From the NCBI GenBank assembly GCA_937996795.1, contig CALKUH010000050.1:5867-69866 (forward strand): a stretch of DNA of 64,000 nucleotides, written 5' to 3'. Source of the stretch: an uncultured Verrucomicrobiota bacterium (GTDB lineage Bacteria; Verrucomicrobiota; Kiritimatiellia; CAIVKH01). This document shows, one piece after another, positions 2,093-61,626 of this stretch. A program made the translations under genes and the position numbers. Within the stretch, counting starts at the first letter, position 1. Each line of letters opens with the position of its first letter. The notes under the pieces were generated by a model. It saw only the letters and a program-made list of their open reading frames with translations, did no database searches and was not told the origin of the DNA.

Positions 2093-3912
<1,820 letters not shown>

Positions 3913-4738: not shown

Positions 4739-4841
4739 GATGAGCTCCTGTGGTTCTTTGAACGCGTTGTCGGCAGACCCGCGTTCACCCGGGAAAAAAG
4801 AGTACCCCGGGGGCCGCCCCGGCGTCAACACTCCGAACTTC

Positions 4842-24164: not shown

Positions 24165-24293
24165 TACGCGAGACTTCACTTTATTGGGGTGCGCGTCTGC
24201 GGCGATACCTATGTGCGTAAAACAGAAGGCCGGGAAGACAAATCTGTTATTTCGATTCATAGCCGGGATTTCTATAGATTGATCATCGTTGTC

Positions 24294-24893: not shown

Positions 24894-24906
24894 GTTAGTC
24901 TCCATC

Positions 24907-36785: not shown

Positions 36786-36925
36786 GGCGCCATCAATTGA
36801 TGGCGAGTGTACCCCGCGCGAGGCGCATCATCTACTGCATTTCTGCGGGCGGCGCGGGCGGGACGCCCGGGCGCGCATTCACGCTGGCGGGCGGGGCGGC
36901 GCTTCGCCATACTAAAAAGCTGCCC

Positions 36926-39643: not shown

Positions 39644-39727
39644 CCGCGCGGGGGCGGTCCGCGCCGCGGCTTGACCGTTCCGTCGTGCGGGTGTTGAATG
39701 GCTTCAGGCCCCAAGCGGAGAACTGTC

Positions 39728-40579
39728 ATGAATACCTGCCGTTTCCTGTCGATCCTGGTCCTCGGGTTTGGGTTGGTGGCCCCCGCCACGGCGGAGCGCC
39801 TCGTCATCAAAGGGTCCAACACCTTCGGCGAGGAGCTCGGCCCTCGCCTCATTGAGGACTTCAAGAAGACGCACGCGGAGTGGGAGATCGAACTCGAGTC
39901 GCGCAGCACCGGCCACGGCATCCAGGCCCTGCTCGACGGCGCGTGCGACATCGCCCCCGCCTCCCGCTCGCTTAATGATGACGAAATCCGCCTCGCGAAA
40001 TCCCGGGGCCTCACGCTGCGGGTGCACACCATCGGCTACTACGGCATCGCCGTGATCGTGCACCGCGACAACCCGGTGGGCTCGCTCGCCGACCACCAGG
40101 TGCGCGACATCTTCACCGGCGCCCTCAAGAACTGGAGCGCCGTGCGCGGGCCCGACGCGCCGATCGTTACGCATATTTCCGTGCCCGAGGCCGGCACGTA
40201 CCTCGGCTTCCAAGAACTGGCGATGGACCGGCGCCCGTACCGCGCCGACGCCGTCGCGCATGAGAGCTATGCGGATATCGCCGCCGCGGTCGCGAAGGAC
40301 CCGAACGCAATCGGGTATGTGTCGATGTCGCTGGCGGCCGGCCCGTCGGTGCGCGCCGTGAAGATCAACGGCGTGCCCGCCACGCCGATTTCCGTGTCGG
40401 ACGACCAGTATCCCTACGCGCGCCTGTTGCGTTTCTACACGGACAAGAACCGCGAATCGCTCGCCGCCCGCGAATTCATCCGCTACGTCCGCTCGCGTCA
40501 GGGCCAGAACGTGCTGGAGGACGCCGGCTTCGTCCGCCGCTTCCAGCGCCACCTCTCCTTCGGCATGGAAACGCAGTAA
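39728..40579 (+). CDS. PstS-family (PBP-like_2) periplasmic phosphate or oxyanion-binding protein, orphan
   Basis: Signal peptide (MNTCRFLSILVLGFGLVAPATA). IKGSNTFGEELGPRLIEDF and TGHGIQALLDGACDIAPASR resemble PstS/PhoT substrate-binding proteins. No adjacent pstCAB. Confidence 0.7.
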   Translation: MNTCRFLSILVLGFGLVAPATAERLVIKGSNTFGEELGPRLIEDFKKTHAEWEIELESRSTGHGIQALLDGACDIAPASRSLNDDEIRLAKSRGLTLRVHTIGYYGIAVIVHRDNPVGSLADHQVRDIFTGALKNWSAVRGPDAPIVTHISVPEAGTYLGFQELAMDRRPYRADAVAHESYADIAAAVAKDPNAIGYVSMSLAAGPSVRAVKINGVPATPISVSDDQYPYARLLRFYTDKNRESLAAREFIRYVRSRQGQNVLEDAGFVRRFQRHLSFGMETQ

Positions 40580-45177: not shown

Positions 45178-46554
45178 TCACACCCCCCGCGGGGGCGCAA
45201 CCGGAGGGCGTCCGCGGCAACTGCGTATCCAATTCCGGTACCACCGGGCGGAGTCCTTTGGCGTGCGCTGGCCCGTCGCAAAATCGACATGGACCAGCCC
45301 GAAGCGTTCCTTGTAGCCTTCAGCCCACTCGAAATTGTCGAGCAGGGTCCAGTGGAAGTAGCCGCGCACGTCCACACCCGCCCGAATCGCGGCGTGCAGC
45401 GCCCCCAAATAGCGTTCGAGGTAATCGATCCGCGCGGCATCCCGCACGCGGCCGTCCGCGCCGACCCAGTCGGGCAGGCTGATCCCGTTTTCCGTGATAA
45501 CCACCGGCGTTTTGTAGCGCGCGTGGAAGAAGGTCGCCGCCCAATACAGGCTGCGCGGCAAGACCGCCCACCGGCACAGGCTCATCGGGGTCCCCGGCGG
45601 CAACGGCATCTCGCGGGGCCGCCCGCGCGCGTCGCCGCGCACGGGCACGCCGCTGTAGACATTCAGGCCCACGAAATCGAGGGGTTGTGCGATCACCGCC
45701 CCGTCCTCCGCCAGCGCGTCGGCCGCGGCGGCGCCGTAGGCCCGCCGCCCGGTGGCCGGTGGCCGTCCGAGGAAGATCGGGTCGCTCCACCAGACATTGT
45801 TCCATGTGGAGCCCGGCGCGACCGCCGCCATGGCGTTCATCGCGGCGCGCCGGTCCTGCTCGCGCCGCTCGTCGTGCGGCACATGCACCACGGCGGCGTG
45901 GGCGATCCCGATGGACAGGGGGCGTCGGGCGCTGGCGCGCAGCACCTGCACCGCGCGACCGTGCGCCAGCAGCGCATGGTGTGCGGCGCGCAACACCGCG
46001 GGCATCGGCAGGCGGTCGCCGGGGGCGTGGATGCCGGTGCGATGGCCGTAGTCGATAAAGCACTGCGGTTCGTTCAGCGTTATCCAGCGGTCCACACGAT
46101 CCGCCAGCCGGTCCGCCACGCGCGCCGTGTACTCCGCGAACCAGTCTGCGCTGTCGCGGTTTCGCCAGCCTCCACGCCGGTACAGGGCGAGCGGGTAGTC
46201 CCAATGGAACAGCGTGAGCCAGGGTTCTATGTGTGCGCCGAGCAGCTCGTCCACCAGCCGGTCGTAGAAATCCAGGCCCCTGGTATTTTCGCGGCCGACA
46301 CCCTGCGGCATCACGCGCGGCCACGACACCGAAAACCGGTACGCGTGCAACCCCATGCGCCGCATCAGTGCCAGATCCTCGCGCCAGCGCCGCACATGGT
46401 CGCAGGCCCGGTTGCCGGTGTGTCCCCCAAACACCGCGCCGGGCCGGCGGCAAAAGGCATCCCAGACACTGCGGCCCCGTCCGGCGGCATCGCCCTCGAT
46501 CTGGAACGCCGAGGATGCGGCGCCCCAGGCAAACGACGCGGGCCATCCGGTCAC
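45178..46554 (-). CDS. GH1 beta-glucosidase
   Basis: FAWGAASSAFQIEG N-terminal signature, the acid/base TLNEP motif and the nucleophile ITENG motif. The inferred GTG start overlaps the upstream pseudopilin stop (GTGA). The ORF-track start at 46836 is too far upstream. Confidence 0.88.
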   Translation of the reverse strand: MTGWPASFAWGAASSAFQIEGDAAGRGRSVWDAFCRRPGAVFGGHTGNRACDHVRRWREDLALMRRMGLHAYRFSVSWPRVMPQGVGRENTRGLDFYDRLVDELLGAHIEPWLTLFHWDYPLALYRRGGWRNRDSADWFAEYTARVADRLADRVDRWITLNEPQCFIDYGHRTGIHAPGDRLPMPAVLRAAHHALLAHGRAVQVLRASARRPLSIGIAHAAVVHVPHDERREQDRRAAMNAMAAVAPGSTWNNVWWSDPIFLGRPPATGRRAYGAAAADALAEDGAVIAQPLDFVGLNVYSGVPVRGDARGRPREMPLPPGTPMSLCRWAVLPRSLYWAATFFHARYKTPVVITENGISLPDWVGADGRVRDAARIDYLERYLGALHAAIRAGVDVRGYFHWTLLDNFEWAEGYKERFGLVHVDFATGQRTPKDSARWYRNWIRSCRGRPPVAPPRGV

Positions 46555-47150
46555 GGCTGCGTCCCCCACCACCACCACGGCGACTGGCCGTTGGGATCGG
46601 CCCCCATCAGGTCCGCGCGTGTTTTCGCCTGCACATGGCCGTCGAGAAACACGACGTTGTCCGTGTCGCGGTGTCGCGGGCGCACGGCCCAGTCCGTGTC
46701 CAGCGCCACGACGAGCCACGCGGCGCTCGCGAACGCGGACGCATCGCGCCCGGCGACGGCGGTCTGGTTGTCGTTCATCTTGTAGGTCGTGCAGATCTCG
46801 GTTCCATCCACCGTCGCGCAGGCGAACGTGTACCACGCGGGCCAGAGATCATCGCGGTGGAGCGTCGCTGGACAGCGGAAGACGGCGAACTGGTCGCGCA
46901 GGTACTCGCGCAGCATTGAAATCTGGCGGTGCTGCGTGTCCCAGCGCAAATCCGGCATCCGGCCGGCGTGGTCGGCGGCGTAGAAGCGCACCGCGGTTCC
47001 AATCTCGCGCAACTGGGCCGCGCACGCCGTTTGCCAGGCCGATTCCCGCGCGCGCGCCACCATCGAGACGGCCAGCGACGCCAGCACCGCGATCACGGCG
47101 ATCACGGCCAGCAGCTCGACCAGCGAGAATCCGCGCACGCGGCGTTTCAT
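46551..47150 (-). CDS. Prepilin-type N-terminal cleavage/methylation domain protein embedded in the CAZyme operon
   Basis: MKRRVRGFSLVELLAVIAVIAVLASLAVSM, with GGAGG 6 nt upstream. ATGA overlap with the upstream GH94-like gene and GTGA overlap with the downstream GH1 gene. Confidence 0.8.
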   Translation of the reverse strand: MKRRVRGFSLVELLAVIAVIAVLASLAVSMVARARESAWQTACAAQLREIGTAVRFYAADHAGRMPDLRWDTQHRQISMLREYLRDQFAVFRCPATLHRDDLWPAWYTFACATVDGTEICTTYKMNDNQTAVAGRDASAFASAAWLVVALDTDWAVRPRHRDTDNVVFLDGHVQAKTRADLMGADPNGQSPWWWWGTQP

Positions 47151-50100
47151 CGCGCGCCTCCTGGCGGCAAGGCCAGGTCGAGCACGTTGCCCTCCTCTCG
47201 CAACCGGCTTCGGAATTCGGCGTATGCCACGCTTCCGCCGCCCGCGCGGTAGGGATTTCCCGCCAGCGGCAGCATCGCCAGCGGTTCGCCATTCAGCCGC
47301 GCGCAAAGCCCGCCCGCGCCAGGCTGCACGCGGTGCAGCACCAGCAGCGGACGCCCGAATAGTTCATGCCGCAAGGCAACGCCGTCCCACGCCGCCGGCA
47401 GGACGGGATCAAGTTCCAGCCGGTCGAAGCGGCGGCGCCACCCAAACAACCGCGCCAGCACCGCGTGGACAAAAATGCCCGGGCCGCTGGAATAGACGCG
47501 CCAGCCGCCGCGCACCGGCACGCCGCCCGCGCGCAATTCCTCCCACCGGGCCGCCGCCTCGGCGCGGGTGTCGAATCGCGCATCGCTGCTGCTGAAATAG
47601 GCGTTGGCCTGGCGGCATTCCGCGTTTGCCACGGTCTCCTGCAGCGCGACCGGGTTCACGGCCAGCAGGCCGCGCACCAGCTCGTCCGCATCGCCGACCC
47701 GCGCCATCGCCTCGCAATAGCGCAGGTGCGCGTGCACATACTGCAACCCCACCTCGCGCCCGAAGAAGGCCGCCGTTTCGGCGCGCTGGAAATGCGTGCG
47801 CCGCCCGCCGCGGTACGGCACCGGCGTGTCCATTAAATGCACGCCGTCCGGCATCCAGAGCCATTCGCGCAGCAGGGCCAGGTGGGCGCGGGCCTCCGTC
47901 GGCGTGAAGAGTCCGCTGAGGATGCCGCGGTTGATCGACAGCAGGCGCAGGCGCGGCCCGGAGCTGTGGTCGGACGGATGCAGCAGCAGGCGCGCGCGGC
48001 CGTCCGCGCCGAACAGGGCGAACCCCGCGATGACGCCGTCGCGGATCAGATGGCGGTGCACGTCGGTGTGAATGCGTTCGGCCAGATCCGCGCAACGGCC
48101 CGCGAGGCCGTGCCATCCGTACCGGCGCGCGCAGGCGGCGAACCGCGTGACGGTTTCAAACACGAGCATCACCGTCCACGCGCTCGTCATCCGCTCGCGC
48201 ATCTCCGCGCGCAGCGGCTGCAAGGTGTCGTCCCAGTCGCCGTCGCGGTAGCGCAGCAGCGAGGTGCCCTCGATGCAGTCGTGTTCCAGGATGCCGAGCT
48301 GGCGCTCGACGTGATCACGCAGCGGCGTGGCGGGCCGCGGCCGATGGTCCGCGCCCATCCAGCCGACCGGCCGGTCCAGCAGGCCGGGATCGTCCGTCGC
48401 CTCCAGGACATCGCACAGCGCCTTCAGCGGCCACACCACAATGTCGCCGTGGCAGTGGCGCTGACGAATCGCGCCGTACGGCTCGAACATGAACCACTGC
48501 GGCCACAGCCCGGTGTCCGCGTCCTGCTGGGCATACACGCGGTCCAGCAGGACCGGCAGATACGCCGTCCGCCCCGTCGCGATCAGCCACTCCAGCGGGC
48601 CCTGGCATACGTCGCGCGTGCCCCATGCGCCGCCATTAAACTGTTCCAGGCCATGCGGCGTCGCGAGGTGCACGAGCGCATTGTGCGAGAACCAGGGCAG
48701 GATCGTGTCGAGCCGCTCCGCCTCCGCCACGCCCATCACGCGGACGCCACCCGTCAGGGCGGACCGGTACGGTTGCGTGCCGTCCAGCCGGTCCTCGCGC
48801 GACGGCGCAGGGCGGTCATCCGCCGCCCGGATGCGCAGGGTCGCCGACGCCGTCGTCGGCCAGGTCCATTCGAGCAGGGGCGTATCCGCATCGTGGTCCC
48901 ACACGTCCGCCGGACCGGCCGCGGCGGCGCCCGCATCGCCTTCCACGATGTAGGACGGATGCGCGGTGGACGCCTCCTCGCCCGTCACAAGCGGGCAGCA
49001 CAACACTCCGCATCCCCGCGCCATCGCGCGATACGGGCGCGCCCCGTCCACATCCAGCTCCAGCGTCGCCCGCATCGAAAGCGGCGGACCTTCGAGCACA
49101 CGCGCGGTGAAGGTTAATTCGCGCGAGGCGGCGGCGGACGACCGCACTTCCAGTGTGATTCCGCCGAACCGGTACACCCACTCCGCCGCCCGCGCGTGCA
49201 TGCCGAAGGCGGAGGGAATGCCGAGCTGCCGCCATGCCCCATCCCAGTCCACGAAGAGGCGCAGGCCGGACGATCGCTGGAGGTTCAACGGGTGCCGCAC
49301 CACCGACAGCAGGCGATGCAGGTTCGGATTGCCGCGCGTCACATGGCTGTGGAACACACCCATCGCGTACACCGTGCTGCACAGCGGTTCCGCCTCAGGA
49401 CCCGGCGGATCGCCGCACACGAGGATGTGGCCGTGCGGACGCTCGACCCGCCGCTCTTTGGCGCCAAGCACCACATGCGCGCCGGATTCGGTGAAAAACG
49501 AAAGCAGCGCCCCGTCCCTCCGCTCCTCATGACGCCAGGGACCGCCCCAGCGCGCGCGCAGTGCCGCCTCGTCCAGCGGCTCGCCGGCCAGCAGCGGACC
49601 CTCAAACCGGCCCGCCTCCGGCGGCGGCCCTTCCACGCACGGACGGCCGGGCCACGCAGTGGACGCCGCCCACTGCGCCGCCGCAGCCACGCGCCGCGCG
49701 TCGCTGCCGCCGGACGCGGACGGATGGTGGGGCACAAATTCGGCGAAAAAACGCGCCTCGCCGTGATCGCCCGCCGCCAGCCGCTGCGCCATCGACACCA
49801 GCGCTCCGCAGCCCATTTCATATTGCATCACGCGCGACGGCAGGTGCGCCGCGCGCCACGCCTCCGGTTCGCCGGTGGCGCGGAACCCGAGGCCCAGCAC
49901 CTGTAGTCCGTCGGTTGCATACGACGCCGCGCCGGGCTGGCAGCCCTGCAGCATCCACGGGAACCGCTCTCCGGCCTGCGGCTGGTTCTGCCGTGACAAC
50001 AGCACCGGGCCGGCGGCGGTCTCCAGGACCGTGTGATCCACATAGTGCGCCGCATACGCCTCGTTGATCCGCAGCGTGGCGGGCGGCGCCAGTCCGAGAT

Positions 50101-50530
50101 CCTGCGCATACAAGACGTCCCACTCCACCGCCTCCGCGCCCCGGTTCGCCACGCGGACCAGCCACGCCCAGCGCGCGGCCGCGTCGTCCAACACCAGCGC
50201 GACTTCGACGGCCAGCGCGCCGTCGTGCACGCGCCACCGCACCGCACCGTCCGCCGGCGCCGCCGCCGCGCGCGCGCGCAATCCCAGCAGTGGAACCACG
50301 CGCACAACCTTCGCGCCTGAACGGACCCGCAATACGAGCTGGAACATCCCGGCTTCGTGCGGCGACACGCGCAATGCATTGATCCGGAGGTCGCCGCAGG
50401 CCACGTCGTGAACAGCCGCCCCGCGCCCGCGCACACACAGGCCGTTCCCGCTGACCACCGTCCACGCGGGCGGCCCCCGGGGCGCCTCCAGGATCACCCG
50501 CTCGTCAAGAACCTGTGTATCCATCTTCAT
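47147..50530 (-). CDS. Large (alpha/alpha)6-barrel glycoside hydrolase or phosphorylase-like protein (GH94/GH36-superfamily-like; 1,2-beta-oligoglucan-phosphorylase-sized)
   Basis: About 1127 aa. A central WFSHNALVHLATPHGLEQFNGGAWGTRDVCQG block resembles the GGxWGxRD catalytic region of GH94-type phosphorylases. Family assignment is by motif and size only. Confidence 0.5.
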   Translation of the reverse strand: MKMDTQVLDERVILEAPRGPPAWTVVSGNGLCVRGRGAAVHDVACGDLRINALRVSPHEAGMFQLVLRVRSGAKVVRVVPLLGLRARAAAAPADGAVRWRVHDGALAVEVALVLDDAAARWAWLVRVANRGAEAVEWDVLYAQDLGLAPPATLRINEAYAAHYVDHTVLETAAGPVLLSRQNQPQAGERFPWMLQGCQPGAASYATDGLQVLGLGFRATGEPEAWRAAHLPSRVMQYEMGCGALVSMAQRLAAGDHGEARFFAEFVPHHPSASGGSDARRVAAAAQWAASTAWPGRPCVEGPPPEAGRFEGPLLAGEPLDEAALRARWGGPWRHEERRDGALLSFFTESGAHVVLGAKERRVERPHGHILVCGDPPGPEAEPLCSTVYAMGVFHSHVTRGNPNLHRLLSVVRHPLNLQRSSGLRLFVDWDGAWRQLGIPSAFGMHARAAEWVYRFGGITLEVRSSAAASRELTFTARVLEGPPLSMRATLELDVDGARPYRAMARGCGVLCCPLVTGEEASTAHPSYIVEGDAGAAAAGPADVWDHDADTPLLEWTWPTTASATLRIRAADDRPAPSREDRLDGTQPYRSALTGGVRVMGVAEAERLDTILPWFSHNALVHLATPHGLEQFNGGAWGTRDVCQGPLEWLIATGRTAYLPVLLDRVYAQQDADTGLWPQWFMFEPYGAIRQRHCHGDIVVWPLKALCDVLEATDDPGLLDRPVGWMGADHRPRPATPLRDHVERQLGILEHDCIEGTSLLRYRDGDWDDTLQPLRAEMRERMTSAWTVMLVFETVTRFAACARRYGWHGLAGRCADLAERIHTDVHRHLIRDGVIAGFALFGADGRARLLLHPSDHSSGPRLRLLSINRGILSGLFTPTEARAHLALLREWLWMPDGVHLMDTPVPYRGGRRTHFQRAETAAFFGREVGLQYVHAHLRYCEAMARVGDADELVRGLLAVNPVALQETVANAECRQANAYFSSSDARFDTRAEAAARWEELRAGGVPVRGGWRVYSSGPGIFVHAVLARLFGWRRRFDRLELDPVLPAAWDGVALRHELFGRPLLVLHRVQPGAGGLCARLNGEPLAMLPLAGNPYRAGGGSVAYAEFRSRLREEGNVLDLALPPGGAR

Positions 50531-53500
50531 GGGGGCTCCGTGCCGTGACTCCATTCGTAATACCCCGCCGGGTCGCGGGCGGACGCCGCCACCGCACGCC
50601 CGTCGACCTCCATCCTCGCAATCGTCGTCTCCGCCGGCAGATGGAGCCGGATGCGGCCGGTGAGCCGCGGCGGCGACTTCACCGACACCCCGTATCCTTC
50701 CGCGGAGCGCTCAATCCGCAGGTCCAGCGGCCCGAATCGCGTCGGCAGGGCCTCGAGCGAGAAGCCGCCCCCGTTCCACCACGCGGCGGGCGCGCCTTCC
50801 AGCAGCCAGAGGTCGTCCCCTGCTTCGCGCACGAGCATTGTGCGCACGGACACGACGTAATCCGCGCCGACCCACGTGTGCGGCATGTCCCCGATGTAGG
50901 TGCCGCGCCGGGGATCGCTCGTGACCACCTCGGCGTAGTGACGCCAACCCGGCGGGCGCCGGTCGCGAAAGAGCCGGTCGTGCAGTGCGCGCGCGTCGTC
51001 GATCCGCCCCATCACCTGCAGCGCCGCGATGTTTCGCGCCTCGTAGGGTGTGTAGAGCCACGCGGCATCCGCCGCATCGCGCCGCGCGACGTGCGCGAGA
51101 TAATCATCGTAGGTCTTCGCGATCGCCTCCGGCGTGAACACGTCGTCCGCCACCTCGCACGGAAAGAAGGCGATCGACACCGAGGTCGCGTCCGGGTCGC
51201 CGCGCTCCGCGGAACCGGGAATGAAATCAATGCCGCACTCGCTCATCGTAAGGGCCAGCGACGCGCGAACCGACGCGGCGAGCAGCGCATACTGTTCGTC
51301 GGCCCACGCGGCGGTTTCCTCCTCGCCCATCCGCCGCGCCAGTTCGGCCCCGTCGCGCCATCCGCGCAGCGCCCAGTAGTCGTCCCAGTACGAATGGTGC
51401 GGCGTGTTGTAGCCCTCGTGACTGATCGACGCGGGCAGCAGGCCGCGGTAACGTGCGCGGCGCGGATCATCCGCGGCGTAGTCGTCCTCCAGCGTCTGTT
51501 CGCGCAGCGCCTGCATGCAGCGCATCGCGCGGAGCACCGCCGGATAGTGGCGGCGCAGGAAGGCGTCGTTGCCGGTGAAGCGCGCGGTCTCCGCGACGAT
51601 GAAGATGAACTGCCCCTGCGCGTCATATTCGAGATTCGAGCCGAACCCGTCATGCACCGTGCCGTCATTGTCGAGAATCGGCGGGACCAGGCCATCCTCG
51701 CGGACCGCGCGGGCATACCAGTCGACGTAGTCCACCGCCTCCTCCACAAGGCCCAGCCGCAACAGCGCGGACGCAGTCAGCGACCCGTCGCGAATCCAAA
51801 CCCTGTTGTAGTTGCGTGAACCCGGCTGCAGCGCGACGCCGTCGCGGTTGACCAGGATGTACCCGGCCTGCGCATACAGCGTGTCCGTGACTTCACGGTC
51901 GCCGAGCGCGATTCCGGCGCGCCGCACGCGCCCCCGCCAAACATCTTCCGCGGCCTCGCGCCGCGCGGCAAATTCAGCCGAATCCACCGCCGCCGTGCCG
52001 CCGACCGTCAGCACGACGGACGTGGATGCCCCGGGCGAGAGATCAACCGTGTGCCGCGATGCAACGGATATCATGCCCGACGGATCGTCAACACCCGCGA
52101 CGCCCGACCAGCGGCCGCGCGCCGCCGCGTGCACCACATCGCCTCCGGCATGGGGCGCGGCCAGGGCTGCATCCGCCGGAGGCGTTAAGGTGTACCCCCA
52201 TCCATCCACCTCGACGCGCGTTGCATCGGCTGCCGGCCGGATGAGGACGCGATGAATTGGCGACACGCCGCCATGCTGCCATTTCGGGTTGATCTGTATC
52301 GGACGCAGCAGCAGCAGAAAATCGCCGGCCAGCGGCGCATCACCCGTTGCGGTGACGGTGTAGCGCACCAGCGTGACGTCGCGGTCGTCCAGCCGGTCCG
52401 GCATCGCGTCGATCCGGACCCGCGCGCCGGCGGCCTGCCATTCGACGGACGGCAGAGGCAGCTGTCCCTCCGCGAGCGACTGCGTGATGGCGGTGGCATC
52501 AAGCGGCGTGACCAGCCGCCCGCCGATGCGCAGGTACGGCATGAGCGCGGGACCGCGCGCGAACACCTCCAGGTTTCCATACTCATCCAGCAGGGCCTCG
52601 TGTGTCGAATCCGGCGGGCCGACGACCGTCCAATACACCTGGCGCCGGTGCAACGACTCCGGATACCAGCCGGGCGGCGCCTTCGCCGCGGCGCGTTCGT
52701 AGAGCGCGAGAGACGTGCGTTCCTCGCCGGGTCCGCGCGGGGAGAGGGTGTTGATGAGCAGATCCGCCGGGTCGTCCGCGCGCATCGCCAGGCGCGCCCG
52801 TCGCACGGTTCGCAGGTCGTGCATCAGGAGGTCGAAGTCGCCTTCGCTCTCGGGCAGGACGTCGGCTGTCCTCCACGCGCCGGATGCGTCCTCAAGTTCC
52901 CAGCGCAGATCGCGCCGCGCGGCGCGGGCCCATTCGATGCGCAGGCCGCTGATCGACTCCGGCGACGGCCATTCCAGCTCAAGCACCGCTTCCGGGGTGT
53001 CGGGATGCCAGCGCGCGGCGACCTCGCCCGCCGGGAACCTGGTTTCGCCGGCCACGTGGGGCGCGGCGTCCGGCCCGAGCACATCGAGGTCCCAGATCGA
53101 TGCGCCCCATCCGGTGGCGCGCCGTTCAATCACCACGCGGACCTGTCGTGCGGTCACGGTCGGGAAATAGATGCGGTCCAGATGCCCGTCCCCGGTGTCC
53201 ACCCGCTGCGCAACCTGCCATGCGCTTCCATCCATCGACGTTTCCACGCGATACGCGGAGGCGAACGCGGTCTCCCACGCGATGCGCAGCCCGGCCACCG
53301 GAGCCGCGCGGCCGAGGTCCACCGCGAGGTGGTGTCCGTCCTCAAACGGGCTGCTCCAGCGCGTGTCCTCGCGCCCGTCAATCGCCGCCGCCGCCGGAAA
53401 TTCGCCGTCCTGTCCGCCCGACGCCGACGCGCTCCACTGCGCACGCGGCGGCAACGCCATGGCAACCGCCGGCCATGCCGCGACCGCCACCGCGAGGAAT

Positions 53501-53550
53501 CGCAGCGCCCGCGCGCCCGGGCGCGACTTTGTGAATCCGTCCTTCTTCAT
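50527..53550 (-). CDS. Secreted protein: N-terminal F5/8 type C (discoidin) domain(s) plus a GH15-like (alpha/alpha)6 glycoside hydrolase domain
   Basis: Signal peptide (MKKDGFTKSRPGARALRFLAVAVAAWPAVA). AIDGREDTRWSS...LAVDLG...GLRIAWE and GLRIEWARAA are discoidin-like. NYNRVWIRDGSLTASALLRLG matches the GH15 W-x-R-D region. Confidence 0.55.
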   Translation of the reverse strand: MKKDGFTKSRPGARALRFLAVAVAAWPAVAMALPPRAQWSASASGGQDGEFPAAAAIDGREDTRWSSPFEDGHHLAVDLGRAAPVAGLRIAWETAFASAYRVETSMDGSAWQVAQRVDTGDGHLDRIYFPTVTARQVRVVIERRATGWGASIWDLDVLGPDAAPHVAGETRFPAGEVAARWHPDTPEAVLELEWPSPESISGLRIEWARAARRDLRWELEDASGAWRTADVLPESEGDFDLLMHDLRTVRRARLAMRADDPADLLINTLSPRGPGEERTSLALYERAAAKAPPGWYPESLHRRQVYWTVVGPPDSTHEALLDEYGNLEVFARGPALMPYLRIGGRLVTPLDATAITQSLAEGQLPLPSVEWQAAGARVRIDAMPDRLDDRDVTLVRYTVTATGDAPLAGDFLLLLRPIQINPKWQHGGVSPIHRVLIRPAADATRVEVDGWGYTLTPPADAALAAPHAGGDVVHAAARGRWSGVAGVDDPSGMISVASRHTVDLSPGASTSVVLTVGGTAAVDSAEFAARREAAEDVWRGRVRRAGIALGDREVTDTLYAQAGYILVNRDGVALQPGSRNYNRVWIRDGSLTASALLRLGLVEEAVDYVDWYARAVREDGLVPPILDNDGTVHDGFGSNLEYDAQGQFIFIVAETARFTGNDAFLRRHYPAVLRAMRCMQALREQTLEDDYAADDPRRARYRGLLPASISHEGYNTPHHSYWDDYWALRGWRDGAELARRMGEEETAAWADEQYALLAASVRASLALTMSECGIDFIPGSAERGDPDATSVSIAFFPCEVADDVFTPEAIAKTYDDYLAHVARRDAADAAWLYTPYEARNIAALQVMGRIDDARALHDRLFRDRRPPGWRHYAEVVTSDPRRGTYIGDMPHTWVGADYVVSVRTMLVREAGDDLWLLEGAPAAWWNGGGFSLEALPTRFGPLDLRIERSAEGYGVSVKSPPRLTGRIRLHLPAETTIARMEVDGRAVAASARDPAGYYEWSHGTEPP

Positions 53551-53557
53551 TCCGCAA

Positions 53558-54418
53558 TCATCCCTTCACCGCGCCGGAGGTGAGCCCGGCAATAAATTCG
53601 CGCTGCAACCCGATGAACAGCGCCATTACAGGCAGAATGGAGACGAGCGTGCCGGCCATCAGCAGGCCGTAGTCGGTGCCGTAGATGCCCTTCACCTGCG
53701 CAAGGGCGACGGCGAGCGGGAAGCGCTCGGGCGATTGCAGGATGATTTGCGGGCCGATGAAATTGTTCCAGGCGCCGATGAACGTGATGAGCAGGAACGC
53801 GCCGAGCATCGGCCGGCACAGCGGAAGCACGATTTCAAAAAACAGCCGCACCTCGCCGCACCCGTCCATGCGCGCGGCCTCAAGCAGGTCGGGCGGCACG
53901 GCGTTGAGCATCGCCTGCCGGAACAGGTACACGCCGAACGCGGGGGCCAGGCCGGGCAGGATCAGCCCCGCGAAGGTGTCGAGCAGGCCGAGGCGATGGA
54001 CAAGAGCGTAGCCCGGCGCCAGCAGGAGCGGCGCGGGCACGATCAACGCGCCGAGCACCAGCGCCGTCACCGCGGCGCGGCCGCGGAACGCGAACCGCGC
54101 GAGCGCGTAGCCGCCCATCGCCGCGCACAGCGTCGCGAGGACGCCGGACACGGACGCATAGAACACGGAGTTCAGCAGGCTCGCGCCGAACCGCAGGCTC
54201 GGGTCGCTGAAGAGGCGCGCCAGGTGGTCGAGGGTCAGGCCGCCCCAGTCCACGCCCAGCGCCCCCGCGCCGCGCGGCAGGAAATGCGCGGAGAAGAAGG
54301 CGTCGCGTGTTTTGAACGCGCCGCAGACGAGGTACGCAAACGGCGCGAGCGTCAGCAGCGCCGCGGCGCCGAGCAGGCCGTGTGCCAGCGCGGAGGACAT
54401 GCGCGCGCGCAGGTTCAT
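53558..54418 (-). CDS. Carbohydrate ABC transporter permease (MalG/UgpE-like)
   Basis: 6-TM protein with the EAA-type loop (EAARMDGCGEVRLFFEIVLPLCRP). Start MNLRARM, with ATGA overlap with the upstream permease. The ORF-track start at 54988 is too far upstream. Confidence 0.85.
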   Translation of the reverse strand: MNLRARMSSALAHGLLGAAALLTLAPFAYLVCGAFKTRDAFFSAHFLPRGAGALGVDWGGLTLDHLARLFSDPSLRFGASLLNSVFYASVSGVLATLCAAMGGYALARFAFRGRAAVTALVLGALIVPAPLLLAPGYALVHRLGLLDTFAGLILPGLAPAFGVYLFRQAMLNAVPPDLLEAARMDGCGEVRLFFEIVLPLCRPMLGAFLLITFIGAWNNFIGPQIILQSPERFPLAVALAQVKGIYGTDYGLLMAGTLVSILPVMALFIGLQREFIAGLTSGAVKG

Positions 54419-55296
54419 GACCGCGCCTCCCGCTGGAGCGCGCGCTGCAGCACGGCGATGCCCATCAGGAACAGCGCGAGCACCCAGCCGATCGCCGCCG
54501 CGTAGCCGAGGTCGCCGGTCTCGAATCCGTTCTGGTAGAGGTACATCACGATCGTAAGGCCGCGGCTCTCCGGGCCGGCCCCGCCGAGCAGGATGTAGGG
54601 CAGCTCGAAGAGCTGCATGCTGCCGATCACCGACAGCAGCGTCACGAAACCAGCCACCGGCGCGATGGCGGGCCAGGTCACATGGCGGAAAACGCTGCAC
54701 GGCCCCGCGCCGTCCACTCGCGCGGCCTCGACCAGGGACTTGTCGACGCCCTGCAGCGCGGCGAGGAAATAGATCATGTTGAACCCGGCGTACATCCACA
54801 GCGAGGCGAGGATCAGCGCGGGCATGATGTGGCGCTGCAGCCACGGGAACTCCGCGGGAAAGCCCGGCCATACGCGCGCGAGCGCGGCGTTTAGCAAGCC
54901 CTCGCGCTCGTGCAGGATCAGCGCGAACAGCGCGGCGACGAAGACGAGGCCGACGAGCGACGGCGAGAAAAACGCGAGCCGGAACCACGCGCGCCCGCGC
55001 AGGCCCGGCTGGTTCAGCAACAGTGCCAGCCCCAGCGCAACCGGCAACTGCACGAACAGCGAACCCGCGGTGTACGCGAATGTGTTCCGCGCAGCCGTCC
55101 AGAACAGCGGGTCGCGGAACAGGTCGGCGAAATTTTTAAGGCCGACCCGCACGGCCGTGTCGGGCCCGTATGTCTGCTGCAGTGCCAGTCCCACCGAGGA
55201 CACCAGCGGGAAAACCATAAACACACCGAACAGCACGACGAACGGCGCGAGAAAAATCCACGGAGCCCAAACCGGATGGAGGCGCGCGGAGGACAT
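54415..55296 (-). CDS. Carbohydrate ABC transporter permease (MalF/UgpA-like)
   Basis: EAA loop (EAARVDGAGPCSVFRHVTWPAIAP) and 6 TM helices. Confidence 0.85.
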   Translation of the reverse strand: MSSARLHPVWAPWIFLAPFVVLFGVFMVFPLVSSVGLALQQTYGPDTAVRVGLKNFADLFRDPLFWTAARNTFAYTAGSLFVQLPVALGLALLLNQPGLRGRAWFRLAFFSPSLVGLVFVAALFALILHEREGLLNAALARVWPGFPAEFPWLQRHIMPALILASLWMYAGFNMIYFLAALQGVDKSLVEAARVDGAGPCSVFRHVTWPAIAPVAGFVTLLSVIGSMQLFELPYILLGGAGPESRGLTIVMYLYQNGFETGDLGYAAAIGWVLALFLMGIAVLQRALQREARS

Positions 55297-55298: not shown

Positions 55299-56696
55299 TC
55301 AGGGCGTCTCCCCGGCGGACTCAAAAAATACGTTCCGCGCCATGTGTTGCCGCACGCGCTGCTCGGCTTGCGCGAGGTGCGCTCGCGCGAGCGGCTCCAA
55401 CTGCTCCACGCGGTGCAACGCATGGCGCTCGGCCTCGGCTTTCAGTCCCAGGGCCGCGTCGCCAAGCGCCGCGAGCGCAAGCCGCTGGTAGGGCGACGAG
55501 GTGCGCGCGGGCACGTGGGGCGCCTGCTCAAGATACAGACGGCCCGCCGGCTGGCCGGAGAAGAACGGGTTCGGCTCGTCGAACACCGGATCGTCCCAAA
55601 ACGTGCGGACCGCGGTGACGATGCCGGCCTCGCGGTACAGGCGGCGTGCGATGTCGCGGTTCAGATAGAGTTGCTGCGCGAGCGACCACGCGCGCTCGAC
55701 GTCCCGCGCCGCGCGCGGCAGGCCGAGCATCGTGCCGCCCATTACGCTCGTGCGCCGCCCGCCGGGCGTCCAGGCCGGCAGCGACATCACCTTGACCCTG
55801 CCCGCGAGGCCGGGCAGGTCGAGCTGCCACGCGCCGGCGAGCCAGTCCGGCAGCAGGCTGCACAACACAACGCCGTCGAGCCGCAGCCGGTTGCCGGCGG
55901 CGTCGAATTCCGGCGCGTTGATCGCGATTCGGTCCGGACCGGTGGTCCAGGATGCGATTGTTGCAAGGACATGCGCGTTTACGTCCGTCGACATCGCCAG
56001 CTGTTCGCGCGCATCGAAGAGGCCGCCGCCCGCCTGCAGCAGCAACACCTCGAGCAGTTCCGGGTTCGTTTCCCAGAGGTTCAAGAGGTAGCGGTCCGGC
56101 CGCCCGTCGCCGTCGGCATCCGCCATCAGCGGTTTCAGCACATGCACGAATTGGTCCCACGTCTGGACCGATGACAGGTCAATGCCCGCCGCCTCGACAA
56201 CATCCGCACGGTAGCCGAGCAGCACCGGGTGCACATCGTGCGGCAGGCCGTAGATGCGGCCGCGCGTGGTCCACGGCGTCAGCGACGGCGGATTGAATTG
56301 CTCTAACAAGCCGGTTTCGCGCAGCCGGTCGGTGAGGTCGAGGAACCCGATCTGCTCGACGGGTCCGCGGAACACCTGCGCCGCAATGCCGCCGTGCACC
56401 TCGACCACGTCGGGCAGCGGCGTGCCCGACAGGAAGCCGGACAGCAGGCGGCGCTGCAGCGCATCCGTCGTCAGCAGCAGCGACTCCGCGCGCGGCCGGT
56501 CCGGCGCCGCATTCCATTCCTCCAGCACCGGCGCATACATCTCCTGGTGCGGCCGCGCGAAGGTCCACAGGAGCAGGTCGGGGCGCGGGGCGTCGGGCCG
56601 CAGCGCGACGGCCACGGACGACAGCACGGCCAGCGTGCAGACGATCCAGACCGCGGGCGTCAGGGCCGGTTCGCGGTCTGTGCGGCGGGTGTTCAT
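55299..56696 (-). CDS. Extracellular solute-binding protein (family 1) of a sugar ABC transporter
   Basis: Start MNTRRTDREPALTPAVWIVCTLAVLSSVAVA, about 465 aa, directly upstream of the two permeases. The exact start coordinate is uncertain by 1-2 nt in my reading. Confidence 0.7.
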   Translation of the reverse strand: MNTRRTDREPALTPAVWIVCTLAVLSSVAVALRPDAPRPDLLLWTFARPHQEMYAPVLEEWNAAPDRPRAESLLLTTDALQRRLLSGFLSGTPLPDVVEVHGGIAAQVFRGPVEQIGFLDLTDRLRETGLLEQFNPPSLTPWTTRGRIYGLPHDVHPVLLGYRADVVEAAGIDLSSVQTWDQFVHVLKPLMADADGDGRPDRYLLNLWETNPELLEVLLLQAGGGLFDAREQLAMSTDVNAHVLATIASWTTGPDRIAINAPEFDAAGNRLRLDGVVLCSLLPDWLAGAWQLDLPGLAGRVKVMSLPAWTPGGRRTSVMGGTMLGLPRAARDVERAWSLAQQLYLNRDIARRLYREAGIVTAVRTFWDDPVFDEPNPFFSGQPAGRLYLEQAPHVPARTSSPYQRLALAALGDAALGLKAEAERHALHRVEQLEPLARAHLAQAEQRVRQHMARNVFFESAGETP

Positions 56697-59263
56697 CGGG
56701 CGGCCTTGTCGCGCGCCTGCATGTTTTCGCGCTCGGCGACCACCCGCGCCACGCGGGCCCGTTCGCGCTCGCGCGTGTCCTCCGCCGGCAGCGCCAGCCG
56801 GTACGACGCGTTGTTCGCGTCGTGGGCCCGTTCGCGGTACAGCGCGATTTCGCGGTAGGCCTTCTGCGCGATCGGGTGTTCGCGCACCCACGCGCGCAGG
56901 TCGCGGTCATGCAGCGCATTGAACAGGCTCAGGAACAGCATCGCCTGGTCGAGCAGCAGGTAGTCGGGGCTGACCGCGCCGCTGACGAGGTCCACCGAAT
57001 CGCGGAAACCGAATTGCGGGTCGCGCGCGCCAAGCCGTTCGAGCGCGCGCAGGTTGGCGACCACCTCGGCGGGAAACGCCTCAATGGCAAGGACCGACGC
57101 GTGCGGTGTGACGATCTCGTCGCGCAGATGGCCCCACCCGAGATACACGCCGTCCGGCGCGCGGCACGCGGACCAGCCCCACGCGGCGAACGCGTTTTCA
57201 CGCGCGTGCCGGATCTGCGCGTAGGCGAAGTTCTCCGCCGACCGGCCCATCAGCGTCCCGCGCTCGTCGAGCCACAGCCCGTTGATGAACTGCATGAACA
57301 AGCCTCCGCCCTGCCAGCCGGGCGCGAGGTATTCGGCGTGGTGCCGCGTCTCCGTCGCCCGGGAGAGCCGGTCCCACATCGAGGCGGGCACGCGGCCCGA
57401 GCCGGCGGCGGCGAACTGCGCGAGCCGCGCGTCGGTCCCGAGCGTGTGCAGCAGCCAGTCGCGGTTGAACGACTCCGCCGCCACATCGTAGCCGCCGACG
57501 AGCAACCCGCGCTCCGCGTCGTAAAACGCGTCCCACGCCATCGCGTCGAGCAGCCGGTCGCAGCGCGCGCGCAGATTTGGCAGGCGGACGCCCGCCGCCA
57601 TCAACCCGCCGGCCAGGTTGCCGCTGTCGAGCAGCGAGATCCAGGTGTCGTTGGTGGACGGCGCGCCGTCCTCGACATCGTGCCAGCACTGGACGAAGCC
57701 GTGTCGCGTGTTCCACCCCTCCATTGCGTCGAGCACGCGCGTGACCGCCGCTTCGGCCTCCCTGTCGGTGAGGTAGCCCCATTCCGCCGCCGCCGCGCAC
57801 GCGCTCAGGTAGAGCCCGATGTTGCTGACCGAACTCGGTCCGCGCACCTGCTGGTCGTCGGACGGCAGGCCGGTGTCCGGGTGGACCATCGACGCGATGG
57901 AGCGCCAGGTGTCGCGCGCGACGCCTTCGAGATAGCGCCGGTCCTCGTCCGGCAATCCGGGCGCGTTCGGGATGAACCCCGCGCGGGCCAGGGCGTTCGA
58001 GATCGGTGCATAGCTCATAAAACGTTCCCACACAAAACCCGACCGCGCGTTCTCGATCATCAACAGGGTGATTCCGACATCAATCCCGATGTGTGCGCCG
58101 GCGGACCAGCTGTCGTGCGGATCGAAGGCGGTCACGAACCCGTAGCGGCCCCAGGCCGCATCGGCGTGCGCCGCGCGGATGCGCCCCACCGTGGGACGGC
58201 AGAGGTCCGGCGCAAACGGCAGCGAGCCGGCGGCGGCGTAGGGCACGATGCTGCCGTCCGGCGGCGGGTCGCCGCTCGCGGGCGGTCCGCCCCACCCCGC
58301 GTACCCGCCGCGCCAGTCGGATGCGCTCAGCCCCCACACCTGCTCGTTCCACGCCGGGAACTGCGGCTGCAGGTCCACCGACCACAGGTGTTGCGCGCGC
58401 GTCGCCAGCGCGGAGTTCAGGAAGTAGTCGGCGTAGGCGTCGCGCGTTCCGCGAAAATCGATCCACGCATGCGAGAACTGGTGGGTGAACAGCGGCGGGC
58501 ACTGGATGTACGTGTACGGGCCGTAGGTGATGACCGGCTCGCGCTTCCACGCGTGCCAGGCGTCGTCGGCGAGCGGGTGCTCCGGCGCGGCGAGGCCGAG
58601 CAGGACGAGGATCATGAGTTCGTTGTACCATCCCCACCGCGCGGGCAGGAAACCGCCCTCCGGCGACCAGCCCATGCTCAGCGTGCCGTCATCGTGCAGC
58701 ATCCACGGCCACTCGACGCGCGCGATGATCCGGTCCGCCCAGGCCGCCAGCGGCGTGTCCGGCCAGTGCTGGCGGCAGGTGATCACGCCGGCGAGCAGCA
58801 GCGCGGTGTCGATCGTGGACAGTTCGGAGTCCCATCGCCGCTCGCCGGTGCCGGGCTCGACAAAGTGGTAAAAAAAACCGCGCTCGTGCGGCATCTGCTC
58901 CGCCAGGAAGCGCATCGCCGTTTCCGCTCGCCGGTACGCCTCGCCGGGAGGCAGCCAGCCGCGCGCATCGGCGATACAGAGCGCCGTGAGGCCGAACCCG
59001 GTGGCCGCCGAGCTCGCCACCTCGCCCGGCTTCCGTCCCGAGGCGTCGACGCGATCCCACACGAGGCCGGTCTCCGGATGCATCCAATCGTTGAAATAGG
59101 CGAAGCTATGCCGCGCCAGCTCCTCCACGGGATCCTCTTCCGCGGGTGCGACGTGTTCGTGCTCGGCGGGCGCAGCCGGTTCTGGCGGCCGCACCGCACA
59201 GCCCGTCCAGCATGCGGCCACCATTGCGCCCCAGAGGCCCCGTATCACCATGCGCCCCGTCAC
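56693..59263 (-). CDS. Lipoprotein with two tandem glucoamylase-like/DUF3131-type domains (GH144-like?)
   Basis: MTGRMVIRGLWGAMVAACWTGC lipobox. Two homologous halves (HPETGLVWDRVDASG ... and HPDTGLPSDDQQVRG ...). The family call rests on weak motif resemblance only. Confidence 0.45.
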   Translation of the reverse strand: MTGRMVIRGLWGAMVAACWTGCAVRPPEPAAPAEHEHVAPAEEDPVEELARHSFAYFNDWMHPETGLVWDRVDASGRKPGEVASSAATGFGLTALCIADARGWLPPGEAYRRAETAMRFLAEQMPHERGFFYHFVEPGTGERRWDSELSTIDTALLLAGVITCRQHWPDTPLAAWADRIIARVEWPWMLHDDGTLSMGWSPEGGFLPARWGWYNELMILVLLGLAAPEHPLADDAWHAWKREPVITYGPYTYIQCPPLFTHQFSHAWIDFRGTRDAYADYFLNSALATRAQHLWSVDLQPQFPAWNEQVWGLSASDWRGGYAGWGGPPASGDPPPDGSIVPYAAAGSLPFAPDLCRPTVGRIRAAHADAAWGRYGFVTAFDPHDSWSAGAHIGIDVGITLLMIENARSGFVWERFMSYAPISNALARAGFIPNAPGLPDEDRRYLEGVARDTWRSIASMVHPDTGLPSDDQQVRGPSSVSNIGLYLSACAAAAEWGYLTDREAEAAVTRVLDAMEGWNTRHGFVQCWHDVEDGAPSTNDTWISLLDSGNLAGGLMAAGVRLPNLRARCDRLLDAMAWDAFYDAERGLLVGGYDVAAESFNRDWLLHTLGTDARLAQFAAAGSGRVPASMWDRLSRATETRHHAEYLAPGWQGGGLFMQFINGLWLDERGTLMGRSAENFAYAQIRHARENAFAAWGWSACRAPDGVYLGWGHLRDEIVTPHASVLAIEAFPAEVVANLRALERLGARDPQFGFRDSVDLVSGAVSPDYLLLDQAMLFLSLFNALHDRDLRAWVREHPIAQKAYREIALYRERAHDANNASYRLALPAEDTRERERARVARVVAERENMQARDKAAR

Positions 59264-60537: not shown

Positions 60538-61533
60538 TTACGCGGAAGACCGACCGCAGGTCTCGCGCACCACGAGACGCGGCGCAAACCGCATGTGTCC
60601 CTGGACGCGCTCGCCCACCGCAAACCGAACAGCCGCCGCGCCGATTTCGCCGAGCGGCACCTCGACCGTGGTCAGCCCTACAAAGCGCGCCGTGTAGATG
60701 TCGTCGAAGCCTGTCACCGCGGTATCCTCCGGCACGCGGATGCCTTGTTCCTTCAATGCCTGCAGCACCCCGAGCGCGGTCGCGTCGTTCAGCGCCATCC
60801 AGGCATCCGGCATCGCGCGGCCCGCCTTGAGCCAGGACGCCACCGCCGCCGCGCCGGCGCGCTCCGTGAAATCGCCGGGCAGCACATCCTCGTCCGACAG
60901 CGCGATGCCGCGCTCAAGCAAGGCGTTGCGACACGCGTCCAGGCGTTCCTCCGCGTCGTAGGTGCCGTGTGGCCCGCCGACCACGACCACGTGGCGGTGA
61001 CGACGGACCGCCACGAGATGGTCCACGAGCTGTTCCATTCCAGCCGCGTTGTCGATCACGAGCGATGAAACCCCCTTCAGGGTTGTGGGCCGGTCGAGTT
61101 GCACGAGCGGCAACCCGCGCCGCGCGATCGATTCAATGAACACATCATCAAGCCCGAGATTCATCACCACCAGCGAGTCCACCCGGCGGCCCGTCGCGAA
61201 GGACAGCAACTGTTCGCGCGCGTCGTCGTCCGACGCCGCAACCACCGTCAGGATGTGTTTGCCCATCCGCAGCGCTTCGTCACTGATCGCGCTGAGCAGC
61301 TCGGCATAAAAACCCGCCGTCACCGCTGGAAATACCACGCCGATCAAATCCGTCCGTTGCCGCGCCAGCGCCACCGCCGCATGGCTGGGCTGATAGCCCA
61401 TTTCGTCGGCGACGCGACGCACCCGCGCCGCCGTTTCCGCGTTCACGTCCCACCGCCCGTTTAGGGCGCGCGAGACTGTGCCGTACGAAACGCCAGCCCG
61501 TTCCGCCACATCAAAAAGGGTCACTTTTCCCAT
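60538..61533 (-). CDS. LacI-family transcriptional regulator
   Basis: HTH start VTLFDVAERAGVSYGTVSRALNG plus a periplasmic-binding-protein-like effector domain. Confidence 0.9.
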   Translation of the reverse strand: MGKVTLFDVAERAGVSYGTVSRALNGRWDVNAETAARVRRVADEMGYQPSHAAVALARQRTDLIGVVFPAVTAGFYAELLSAISDEALRMGKHILTVVAASDDDAREQLLSFATGRRVDSLVVMNLGLDDVFIESIARRGLPLVQLDRPTTLKGVSSLVIDNAAGMEQLVDHLVAVRRHRHVVVVGGPHGTYDAEERLDACRNALLERGIALSDEDVLPGDFTERAGAAAVASWLKAGRAMPDAWMALNDATALGVLQALKEQGIRVPEDTAVTGFDDIYTARFVGLTTVEVPLGEIGAAAVRFAVGERVQGHMRFAPRLVVRETCGRSSA

Positions 61534-61626
61534 ATCGTCAGCGCTTACGGTACGCCGCGTGCTTACGGCTGTCAACGCTGCTTTTTTAGGAAAGCGCGGG
61601 GCGTTCTGCCGGCCCGCGCGGATTTG

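Follow-up and report, generated by a model that had tools for sequence, protein, structure and literature searches.

Bacteria of the PVC phyla (Planctomycetota, Verrucomicrobiota, Kiritimatiellota, Lentisphaerota) are major polysaccharide degraders, and how they capture glycans and pass them through the outer membrane is unsettled. A 64-kb stretch of DNA (64,000 nucleotides of contig CALKUH010000050.1, hereafter the window) from an uncultured Verrucomicrobiota bacterium of the Kiritimatiellia raises this question in a particular form: why should the gene of a pilin-like protein stand between two sugar enzymes, a homologue of 1,2-beta-oligoglucan phosphorylase (SOGP) and a GH1 beta-glucosidase? 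An earlier inspection, the sequence-only reading, had placed the gene in an operon of carbohydrate-active enzymes (CAZymes) and proposed that its product captures or presents a substrate rather than building a pilus. In the computational analysis reported here, the protein falls into a subfamily of the H-X9-DG/DUF1559 prepilin-type proteins which, judged by gene order, belongs as a dedicated part to the beta-1,2-glucan loci of Kiritimatiellia and their PVC relatives, and we hold it very probable that the window pilin is dedicated to a beta-1,2-glucan regulon. For its function, a role in substrate capture or presentation at the cell envelope is the leading hypothesis and seems the most likely one.

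What kind of locus surrounds the gene? The glycan context recognised earlier stands, while the term CAZyme operon can be made more exact: by its gene content this is a beta-1,2-glucan utilisation locus, in which SOGP, a GH144-type endo-beta-1,2-glucanase homologue, GH1 and an importer are co-located (Table 1), and the strand, which had gone unstated, is the minus strand. Described beta-1,2-glucan clusters share this composition (PMC12369401, PMC12102758). The 6-phosphogluconate dehydrogenase encoded downstream clusters, at >=90% identity, with Kiritimatiellae/Kiritimatiellia proteins and so assigns the window to a metagenome-assembled genome of the Kiritimatiellia.

Does the pilin belong to such loci as a rule? 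The H-X9-DG/DUF1559 family as a whole is very large: clustered at 50% identity it has 465,432 representatives at E<=1e-3, a number that falls to 223,586 at E<=1e-10, and among the matches listed it spans Kiritimatiellae, Verrucomicrobia, Planctomycetes, Lentisphaerae, Armatimonadetes and Omnitrophota. A profile built on the head domain only sets the subfamily of the window protein (119-325 bits) apart from the remainder, whose scores do not exceed 99 bits. The subfamily alignment comprises 31 members, and the genomic context was examined for 10 of them. All ten lie within GH144 loci, despite an identity to the window protein of 36-45% and a gene order rearranged into three architectures. In the first, GH144-SBP-perm-perm-F5/8C-SOGP-PILIN-GH1 (SBP, solute-binding protein; perm, permease), we find the window, L004, L006 and, in part, L008. 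In the second, (LacI-x-PEP-CTERM-)SOGP-GH144 lies beside an operon of GH144 and a transporter of the major facilitator superfamily (MFS), with the pilin gene divergent (L009, L089, L091 and L093; 36-41% identity). In the third, LacI-x-x-PILIN-GH144-SBP-perm-perm, pilin and GH144 genes overlap by 4 nt (L095 and L096). GH144 is the one enzyme found in every subfamily locus whose relevant region was covered, and these GH144 partners range from 425 to 1000 aa with domain make-up differing between loci, whereas the signature of the pilin head is strictly conserved.

This context is not a property of the family at large. The three outgroup members closest to the subfamily (P0052, P0054, P0057) all lie outside glycan loci, and a genome scan found SOGP or GH144 genes in 0/79 of the other family loci among those listed. 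We also considered a CAZyme association of the whole family and found no support for it: the 95 neighbour proteins of 59 generic loci have no dominant Pfam family, with GH53, heparinase, T2SSF and secretin occurring once or twice each, in a survey whose gene caller still merges some adjacent genes. Because outgroups and generic loci are without such context, the glucan link is specific to the subfamily and not family-wide. Two further arrangements involve generic family members. Within the beta-1,2-glucan locus L095, a second, generic H-X9-DG/DUF1559 pilin of 229 aa (L095:13607-14296, plus strand) lies directly 3' of a GH144-CBM9 gene and is followed by an unannotated 399-aa protein. In loci of the Planctomycete type (L034, L049, L051, L068, L081, L086, L088 and others), a short lipoprotein-like open reading frame (ORF) of ~140-160 aa often comes after the DUF1559 gene; these ORFs, which Pfam does not name, look alike by eye (e.g. 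...GC..VTGTVTxDGKP...) and may represent a conserved partner of DUF1559 proteins.

A regulatory feature accompanies the synteny. The palindrome AATGTAtACGTTTACATT occurs ~25 nt 5' of the pilin ATG in 4/4 MFS loci of the second architecture, within the divergent region between pilin and MFS genes (L009:9901-9914, L089:9967-9980, L091:10045-10058, L093:9967-9980), and a related site, TTGTAACCGCTTACAA or ATGTAAGCGGTTACAA, stands just 5' of the lacI gene that heads the pilin operon in both loci of the third (L095:7650-7663, L096:1891-1904). The background is a single match in 1.09 Mb of other PVC loci. The palindrome, for which the candidate sequence is also given as AATGTATACGTTTACATT, has the shape of a LacI/GalR-type operator and is predicted to act as one. 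In the related loci the pilin would hence be part of a LacI-controlled glucan regulon, and in the window it would simply lie within the operon; scanning for promoters and terminators gave nothing above chance and no site between SOGP, pilin and GH1. The link to glycan use that had been drawn from a single operon is therefore much stronger than one operon could make it, as every subfamily member examined for context belongs to a beta-1,2-glucan locus, across three gene orders and with a predicted LacI-type operator in related loci.

Is the gene real, and is its product a pilin? Coding statistics indicate that the gene is genuine and selected: the GC content at third codon positions (GC3) is 0.80, orthologues were found at 75, 65 and 60% identity, and the dN/dS ratio against them is 0.17-0.19, the mark of purifying selection. 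The class III signal attributed to a protein of about 200 aa was borne out at exactly 46551-47150 on the minus strand, where the 199-aa product opens with MKRRVRG and continues with FSLVELLAVIAVIAVLASLAV, that is, a basic seven-residue leader with Gly-1, then Phe+1, Glu+5 and ~20 hydrophobic residues. With 29.6 bits for Pfam N_methyl (PF07963; gathering cut-off 21.2) and 27.3 bits for TIGR02532 (cut-off 16.3), it passes both thresholds. That this is a real pilin-type exported protein we hardly doubt. The second prepilin-type gene reported from the window is likewise present; it is isolated between glmS (2086-3912) and queA (4581-5927).

Both overlaps with the flanking genes also hold. The pilin ATG shares the TGA of the upstream 1135-aa GH94/SOGP-like gene (ATGA), and the pilin stop shares the GTG that opens the GH1 frame VTGWPASFAWG (VTGWPASFAWGAASSAFQIEGD...; GTGA). 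Automatic gene callers start GH1 27 nt farther upstream; we favour the GTG because both 4-nt [AG]TGA overlaps are kept in three orthologues (60-75% identity), two of which have ATG as the GH1 start, so that the GTG is the likely start, if not a certain one. As a clue to function, translational coupling to the two neighbours did not survive: SOGP and GH1 are presumably cytoplasmic because they lack signal peptides, and in the loci of other lineages the pilin gene is placed elsewhere.

The hallmarks of the H-X9-DG/DUF1559 family, H-x9-D-G (H160...D170 G171) and F-x-C-P, are present, in agreement with the earlier assignment to a prepilin-type family expanded in PVC bacteria, whose function is stated as unknown in the DUF1559 papers. 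As PF07596 reaches 17.1 bits against a gathering threshold of 23.3, over residues 33-62 only, the window pilin is a divergent relative rather than a formal member of Pfam DUF1559, while many subfamily homologues carry precomputed PF07596 matches. TIGR04294 gives no match on the window pilin at E<=0.1 and matches 23/31 subfamily members (best E 5.6e-6), and the JGI annotation of the orthologue P0004 is H-X9-DG prepilin-type family. TIGR01710 (GspG) aligns with the window pilin over model positions 1-56 of 134 at 24.7 bits, far from its equivalog cut-off of 88.85, and matches all 31 members weakly.

Two AlphaFold models (pLDDT 82 and 92.5) show a 50-residue alpha-1 helix packed on a head of antiparallel beta-sheet, the alpha-beta roll of pilins, and in the deeper model the C-terminal tail is ordered (pLDDT 93-96). 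According to these models the whole protein is a single type IV pilin fold. The lectin-like C-terminal domain suggested earlier is thereby replaced by a pilin head with conserved Trp/Tyr-rich motifs, without a separate domain; a lectin-like or solute-binding fold for this part was rejected, as both models match pilins alone. By sequence, no solved structure corresponds to the head, the PDB profile matches (pilins and pseudopilins) being confined to the N-terminal helix.

Across the 31 subfamily members E12, C43, Y57, D60, P66, Y83, C93, P94, W106, T121, K124, D151, H160, F168, G171, V173, W195 and G196 are invariant, and Q73, Q76, Y123, N126, D127, D153, W154, R159, N165, D170, D185, G188, P191 and W192 are conserved in >=90%. 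At position -1 G or A prevails, and F+1 hardly varies. From these residues three subfamily motifs emerge, C-T-[DT]-Y-K-x-N-D, D-x-D-W and D-P-x-G-x-x-P-W-[WY]-x-W-G, most of which the wider family lacks; there only W70, C93-P94, H160 and D170-G171-H172 stand out. The invariant Cys43 and Cys93 are consistent with a periplasmic disulfide. With its invariant Trp, Tyr, Asp, Asn and Lys residues, the head bears a resemblance, though it may be just that, to a carbohydrate-binding site.

Table 1. Features of the pilin-like gene, its product and the surrounding locus in the window.
Feature	Position	Strand	Evidence
Pilin-like gene, 199 aa, H-X9-DG/DUF1559 prepilin-type family, beta-1,2-glucan-locus subfamily	46551..47150	-	Translation, HMM (hidden Markov model) scores, model, dN/dS
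Leader peptide MKRRVRG, Gly-1 last; predicted prepilin-peptidase cleavage before Phe+1	47130..47150	-	Sequence; conservation of -1 and F+1 in subfamily
Mature N-terminal alpha-1 helix, residues 8-60, with invariant Glu+5 (E12) and Cys43	46971..47129	-	Model helix 10-60; PDB profile matches
H-X9-DG motif, H160 RDTDNVVFL D170 G171	46638..46673	-	Sequence; H160/G171 invariant, D170 >=90% in subfamily
C-terminal Trp motif P-W-W-W-W-G, within signature D-P-x-G-x-x-P-W-[WY]-x-W-G	46563..46580	-	W195/G196 invariant; P191/W192 >=90%
Shine-Dalgarno AGGAGG, 6 nt 5' of pilin ATG, within the end of the SOGP gene	47157..47162	-	Sequence
LacI-family regulator, head of locus	60538..61533	-	Pfam LacI and Peripla_BP; same regulator heads L093, L095, L096
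Two paralogous small secreted PEP-CTERM proteins	59880-60509, 59260-59862	-	BLASTP 56% identical; PEP-CTERM matches
GH144-type (PF10091) endo-beta-1,2-glucanase homologue, lipoprotein-like N-terminus (..AACWTGC..)	56693..59263	-	Pfam Glycoamylase 3e-72; PDB 5GZH, 8XUL
Extracellular solute-binding protein (SBP_bac_1) of ABC (ATP-binding cassette) importer	55299..56696	-	Pfam
Two ABC sugar permeases	54415-55296, 53558-54418	-	Pfam BPD_transp_1
1007-aa secreted protein, N-terminal F5/8 type C (CBM32-like) domain	50527..53550	-	Domain scan
1,2-beta-oligoglucan phosphorylase (SOGP, GH94-type) homologue, without signal peptide	47147..50554	-	Pfam SOGP_N, SOGP_2nd; PDB 5H3Z E 2e-167
GH1 beta-glucosidase, without signal peptide	45178..46554	-	TIGR03356 500 bits; PF00232 E 3e-132
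6-phosphogluconate dehydrogenase, MATE transporter, GH39	downstream of GH1		
Second prepilin-type gene, 220 aa, MIKLLRRLQKKG followed by FTLIELL..., without H-X9-DG motif	4076-4738	-	N_methyl 34.4 bits

Would such a protein enter a filament? Glu+5 is the residue that pilins need for filament assembly. It is invariant in 31/31 subfamily members and in 22/22 members of the broader family, which argues for entry into a filament of the pilus or pseudopilus type, and together with the single type IV pilin fold it speaks against the earlier wording 'rather than a pilus'. In other phyla, tandem H-X9-DG pilins directly follow a gspF-like gene (L025) and a secretin adjoins a family member (L024).

We tentatively favour the explanation, possible though somewhat short of probable, that the pilin is a substrate-induced, glucan-binding filament subunit for capture or translocation of glucan outside the cytoplasm. 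Upon induction of the locus, the precursor would be inserted into the inner membrane and cleaved after Gly-1 by a prepilin peptidase encoded elsewhere, and the invariant Glu+5 would permit its incorporation, as a substrate-specific minor subunit, into a filament of the type II secretion system (T2SS) or type IV pilus (T4P) type, likewise encoded elsewhere. The head, with its motifs C-T-[DT]-Y-K-x-N-D, D-x-D-W and P-W-[WY]-x-W-G, would bind beta-1,2-glucan or its oligosaccharides. The pilin would so help to capture soluble glucan and pass it on, possibly via a secretin; the lipoprotein GH144 glucanases would receive it first and the ABC or MFS importer after them. Delivery to the GH144 enzymes might be driven by retraction. 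SOGP and GH1 would complete the breakdown in the cytoplasm. Since the pilin is retained with either kind of importer, ABC with SBP or MFS without SBP, it probably acts upstream of the inner-membrane transporter. The combination of a constant, aromatic-rich head with variable GH144 partners, moreover, is more readily explained if the head recognises an unchanging ligand, the glucan, than if it recognises a protein cargo that varies.

Several points weigh against a glucan-binding filament subunit. All sequences are from metagenome assemblies, with no cultured organism behind them, and the evidence is computational. No prepilin peptidase, secretin, ATPase or platform gene was found in the window, where the large ORFs were scanned, or in the subfamily loci examined, and for this reason we infer processing and filament incorporation from sequence features of the protein itself. 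The operator of the related loci is absent from the window at <=3 mismatches; the sole candidate there is a weak palindrome, CGTAAGCGCTGACG, at ~61536-61549, which ends 12 nt short of the lacI ATG. As for the conserved aromatic residues, they might serve a protein-protein interface and not a sugar. Finally, the loci already encode candidate binders, the PEP-CTERM proteins and the SBP, and a further one is not obviously needed.

In the strongest rival explanation, the pilin would be a cargo-specific pseudopilin that is co-induced with the locus, joins a T2SS pseudopilus and recognises or pushes out the GH144 lipoprotein(s), the F5/8C protein or the PEP-CTERM proteins. A parallel would be Klebsiella, where the lipoprotein pullulanase PulA gets to the cell surface by way of the Pul T2SS, on which it depends. 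The N-termini of the GH144 proteins are of the lipoprotein type, and GH144 alone among the enzymes is constant across the subfamily loci covered. The pilin stop overlaps the GH144 start in L095 and L096, and where the importer is MFS, pilin gene and MFS-GH144 operon diverge from a common promoter region. The weak GspG matches of all 31 members and the gspF and secretin genes beside some family members point the same way. These GspG matches are, however, limited to the N-terminal helix and far below the cut-off, and the head signature is strictly conserved although the GH144 partners vary so widely in length. In addition, we know of no cargo-dedicated pseudopilin that is encoded beside its cargo. 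We therefore regard this explanation as conceivable and rather unlikely.

Alternatively, the protein may act outside any filament, as a membrane-anchored periplasmic accessory such as an oligosaccharide-binding or chaperone-like helper or a sensor, loosely in the manner of the archaeal 'bindosome'. Filament machinery is absent from all loci examined, sugar-binding proteins of Sulfolobus with class III signals provide an archaeal precedent (PMC3047682), and the Pfam identifier of DUF1559 is SBP_bac_10. Against this, established pilin biology gives a plain anchor no need of the invariant Glu+5 or the nearly invariant F+1, the modelled fold is a pilin head and not a periplasmic-binding-protein fold, and the retention of the pilin in SBP loci as well as in SBP-less MFS loci disfavours a role tied to one transporter type, so that we consider such an accessory improbable. 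That the gene is one of many paralogous pseudopilins caught in an operon by chance, with no specific glucan link, would suit the huge size of the family, its heterogeneous neighbours and the three outgroup members outside glycan loci, but this is very improbable and, given the conserved synteny of 10/10 subfamily members in rearranged GH144 loci at 36-45% identity, close to refuted, the LacI-type operator before the gene in related loci, purifying selection and the strict signature pointing against it as well.

How does the pilin compare with known systems? Its closest relatives are the H-X9-DG/DUF1559 proteins (TIGR04294, PF07596), with which it shares the class III signal, an alpha-1 helix with an NLRQ-type segment, F-x-C-P and the H-x9-D-G near the C-terminus; it differs in being short (199 aa), in falling below both HMM thresholds and in its extra subfamily motifs, and the subfamily stands apart from generic members by its fixed genomic and regulatory context. 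With GspG/PulG/EpsG and type IVa pilins such as T. thermophilus PilA4 it has in common the leader, F+1, E+5 and the hydrophobic alpha-1 helix, yet this likeness is confined to the N-terminal ~60 residues, the head being larger with motifs of its own, and the window gene lies outside any gsp or pil operon.

A pilin head that recognises a polymer, so that the filament gains a capture or uptake function, is the feature shared with the ligand-binding pilins. ComP of Neisseria is a specialised pilin with DNA as its ligand. In M. xanthus, Trp146 of PilA mediates the interplay of type IVa pili with exopolysaccharide (PMC12691611), and in C. bescii pilus expression is regulated in response to xylan (10.1101/614800). 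The genes of those pilins lie within or close to pilus loci, and experiments have addressed what they bind, whereas the present gene lies inside a catabolic glycan locus of a Gram-negative PVC bacterium and the binding of its product is putative. Within the PVC group, pili-like fibres of Planctomycetes bind dextran, which is subsequently internalised (PMC5394234). Like the exopolysaccharide and xylan cases, this precedent counts in favour of glucan capture by the pilin head. The closest conceptual parallel is the archaeal bindosome (the Bas system of Sulfolobus), in which a sugar-uptake protein has a class III signal and its gene accompanies those of sugar transporters (PMC3047682); in the bindosome a class III signal has been added to genuine solute-binding proteins of the ABC type, while the window protein has a pilin fold and a separate SBP_bac_1 protein is encoded in its locus.

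The beta-1,2-glucan clusters known from Listeria innocua (lin1839) and S. griseus (SGR_2423-2427) combine SOGP or a beta-glucosidase with an ABC importer for sophoro-oligosaccharides, some with a gene for SGL, a beta-1,2-glucanase, nearby, and the beta-1,2-glucan-associated GH1 of S. griseus has been characterised (PMC12369401). In the portions of these descriptions at hand, neither a pilin-like gene nor PEP-CTERM proteins are reported, and both appear specific to the PVC versions. A literature search for prepilin or pseudopilin genes in polysaccharide utilisation by PVC bacteria found nothing, and no function is assigned to the H-X9-DG/DUF1559 family in the searchable literature. What is known, then, is the family, its expansion in PVC bacteria to tens of paralogues per genome (P. 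limnophila has 68 H-X9-DG/DUF1559 genes, its largest paralogue group, two of them essential; PMC10632474) and the beta-1,2-glucan clusters; what is new is the apparent recruitment of a pilin-like protein as a dedicated, co-regulated component of a glycan locus.

Other members of the locus deserve mention in their own right. Both PEP-CTERM proteins start with NPGFETGDFTGWSTFGQGWR after the signal peptide, and the anchor is clear in one and weak in the other (17.9 bits against a cut-off of 20.7). The pair recurs in the beta-1,2-glucan loci L089 and L093 and, more distantly, in L095 and L096. Weak, sub-threshold CBM4_9 (CBM_4_9) matches occur on the L089 and L093 homologues and not on the window pair. 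These proteins are candidate surface glucan-binding proteins and appear undescribed for the beta-1,2-glucan pathway. The 1007-aa F5/8C protein is conserved in each of the four window-type loci, flanked by the ABC permeases on one side and SOGP on the other; beyond its first ~160 residues, the remaining ~850 aa have no Pfam or PDB match, which makes it a candidate for a new beta-1,2-glucan-acting enzyme. In the GH144-type protein of ~850 aa, the GH144 domain occupies residues ~45-432 and residues 438-556 match DUF3131 and PDB 8WY1 'Glycosyltransferase 36', so the protein may be a two-module enzyme. The region of the GH1 stop, upstream of the gene for 6-phosphogluconate dehydrogenase, is overlapped at 45183-45196 by a perfect, GC-rich palindrome, GCCCCCGCGGGGGG. 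It could act as an attenuator or form an RNA hairpin; as no T-run follows, the terminator scan passed over it.

Farther along the window, a PBP_like_2 binding protein (39698-40579) has as its neighbours three large hybrid histidine kinases (30811-33792 and 33789-36785 on the minus strand, 36797-39643 on the plus strand), which combine PAS/GAF, HisKA, HATPase and receiver domains; the group lies immediately beside the glycan locus. At 22971-28187 (minus strand), four consecutive ORFs (429, 263, 462 and 631 aa), flanked by TPR proteins, have no Pfam match save one TSP3 repeat in the last.

For the family, the findings mean that a subfamily is locked, by synteny and a predicted LacI-type operator, to a chemically defined substrate for which characterised enzymes and oligosaccharides exist, so that H-X9-DG/DUF1559 proteins gain a first testable sugar-linked function that is open to simple experiments. 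The beta-1,2-glucan pathway in turn gains non-enzymatic components, the pilin and the small PEP-CTERM proteins. A wider generalisation, which we consider doubtful, would hold that the family largely consists of interchangeable, substrate-induced pilins that equip a shared T2SS/T4P-like machine, each capturing and importing one polymer by retraction. If this were true, the family would correspond, in PVC bacteria, to glycan capture of the SusD/SGBP type and would explain at the molecular level the polysaccharide-binding fibres and the 'selfish' uptake of these phyla, and the beta-1,2-glucan subfamily would be its first member with an assignable ligand.

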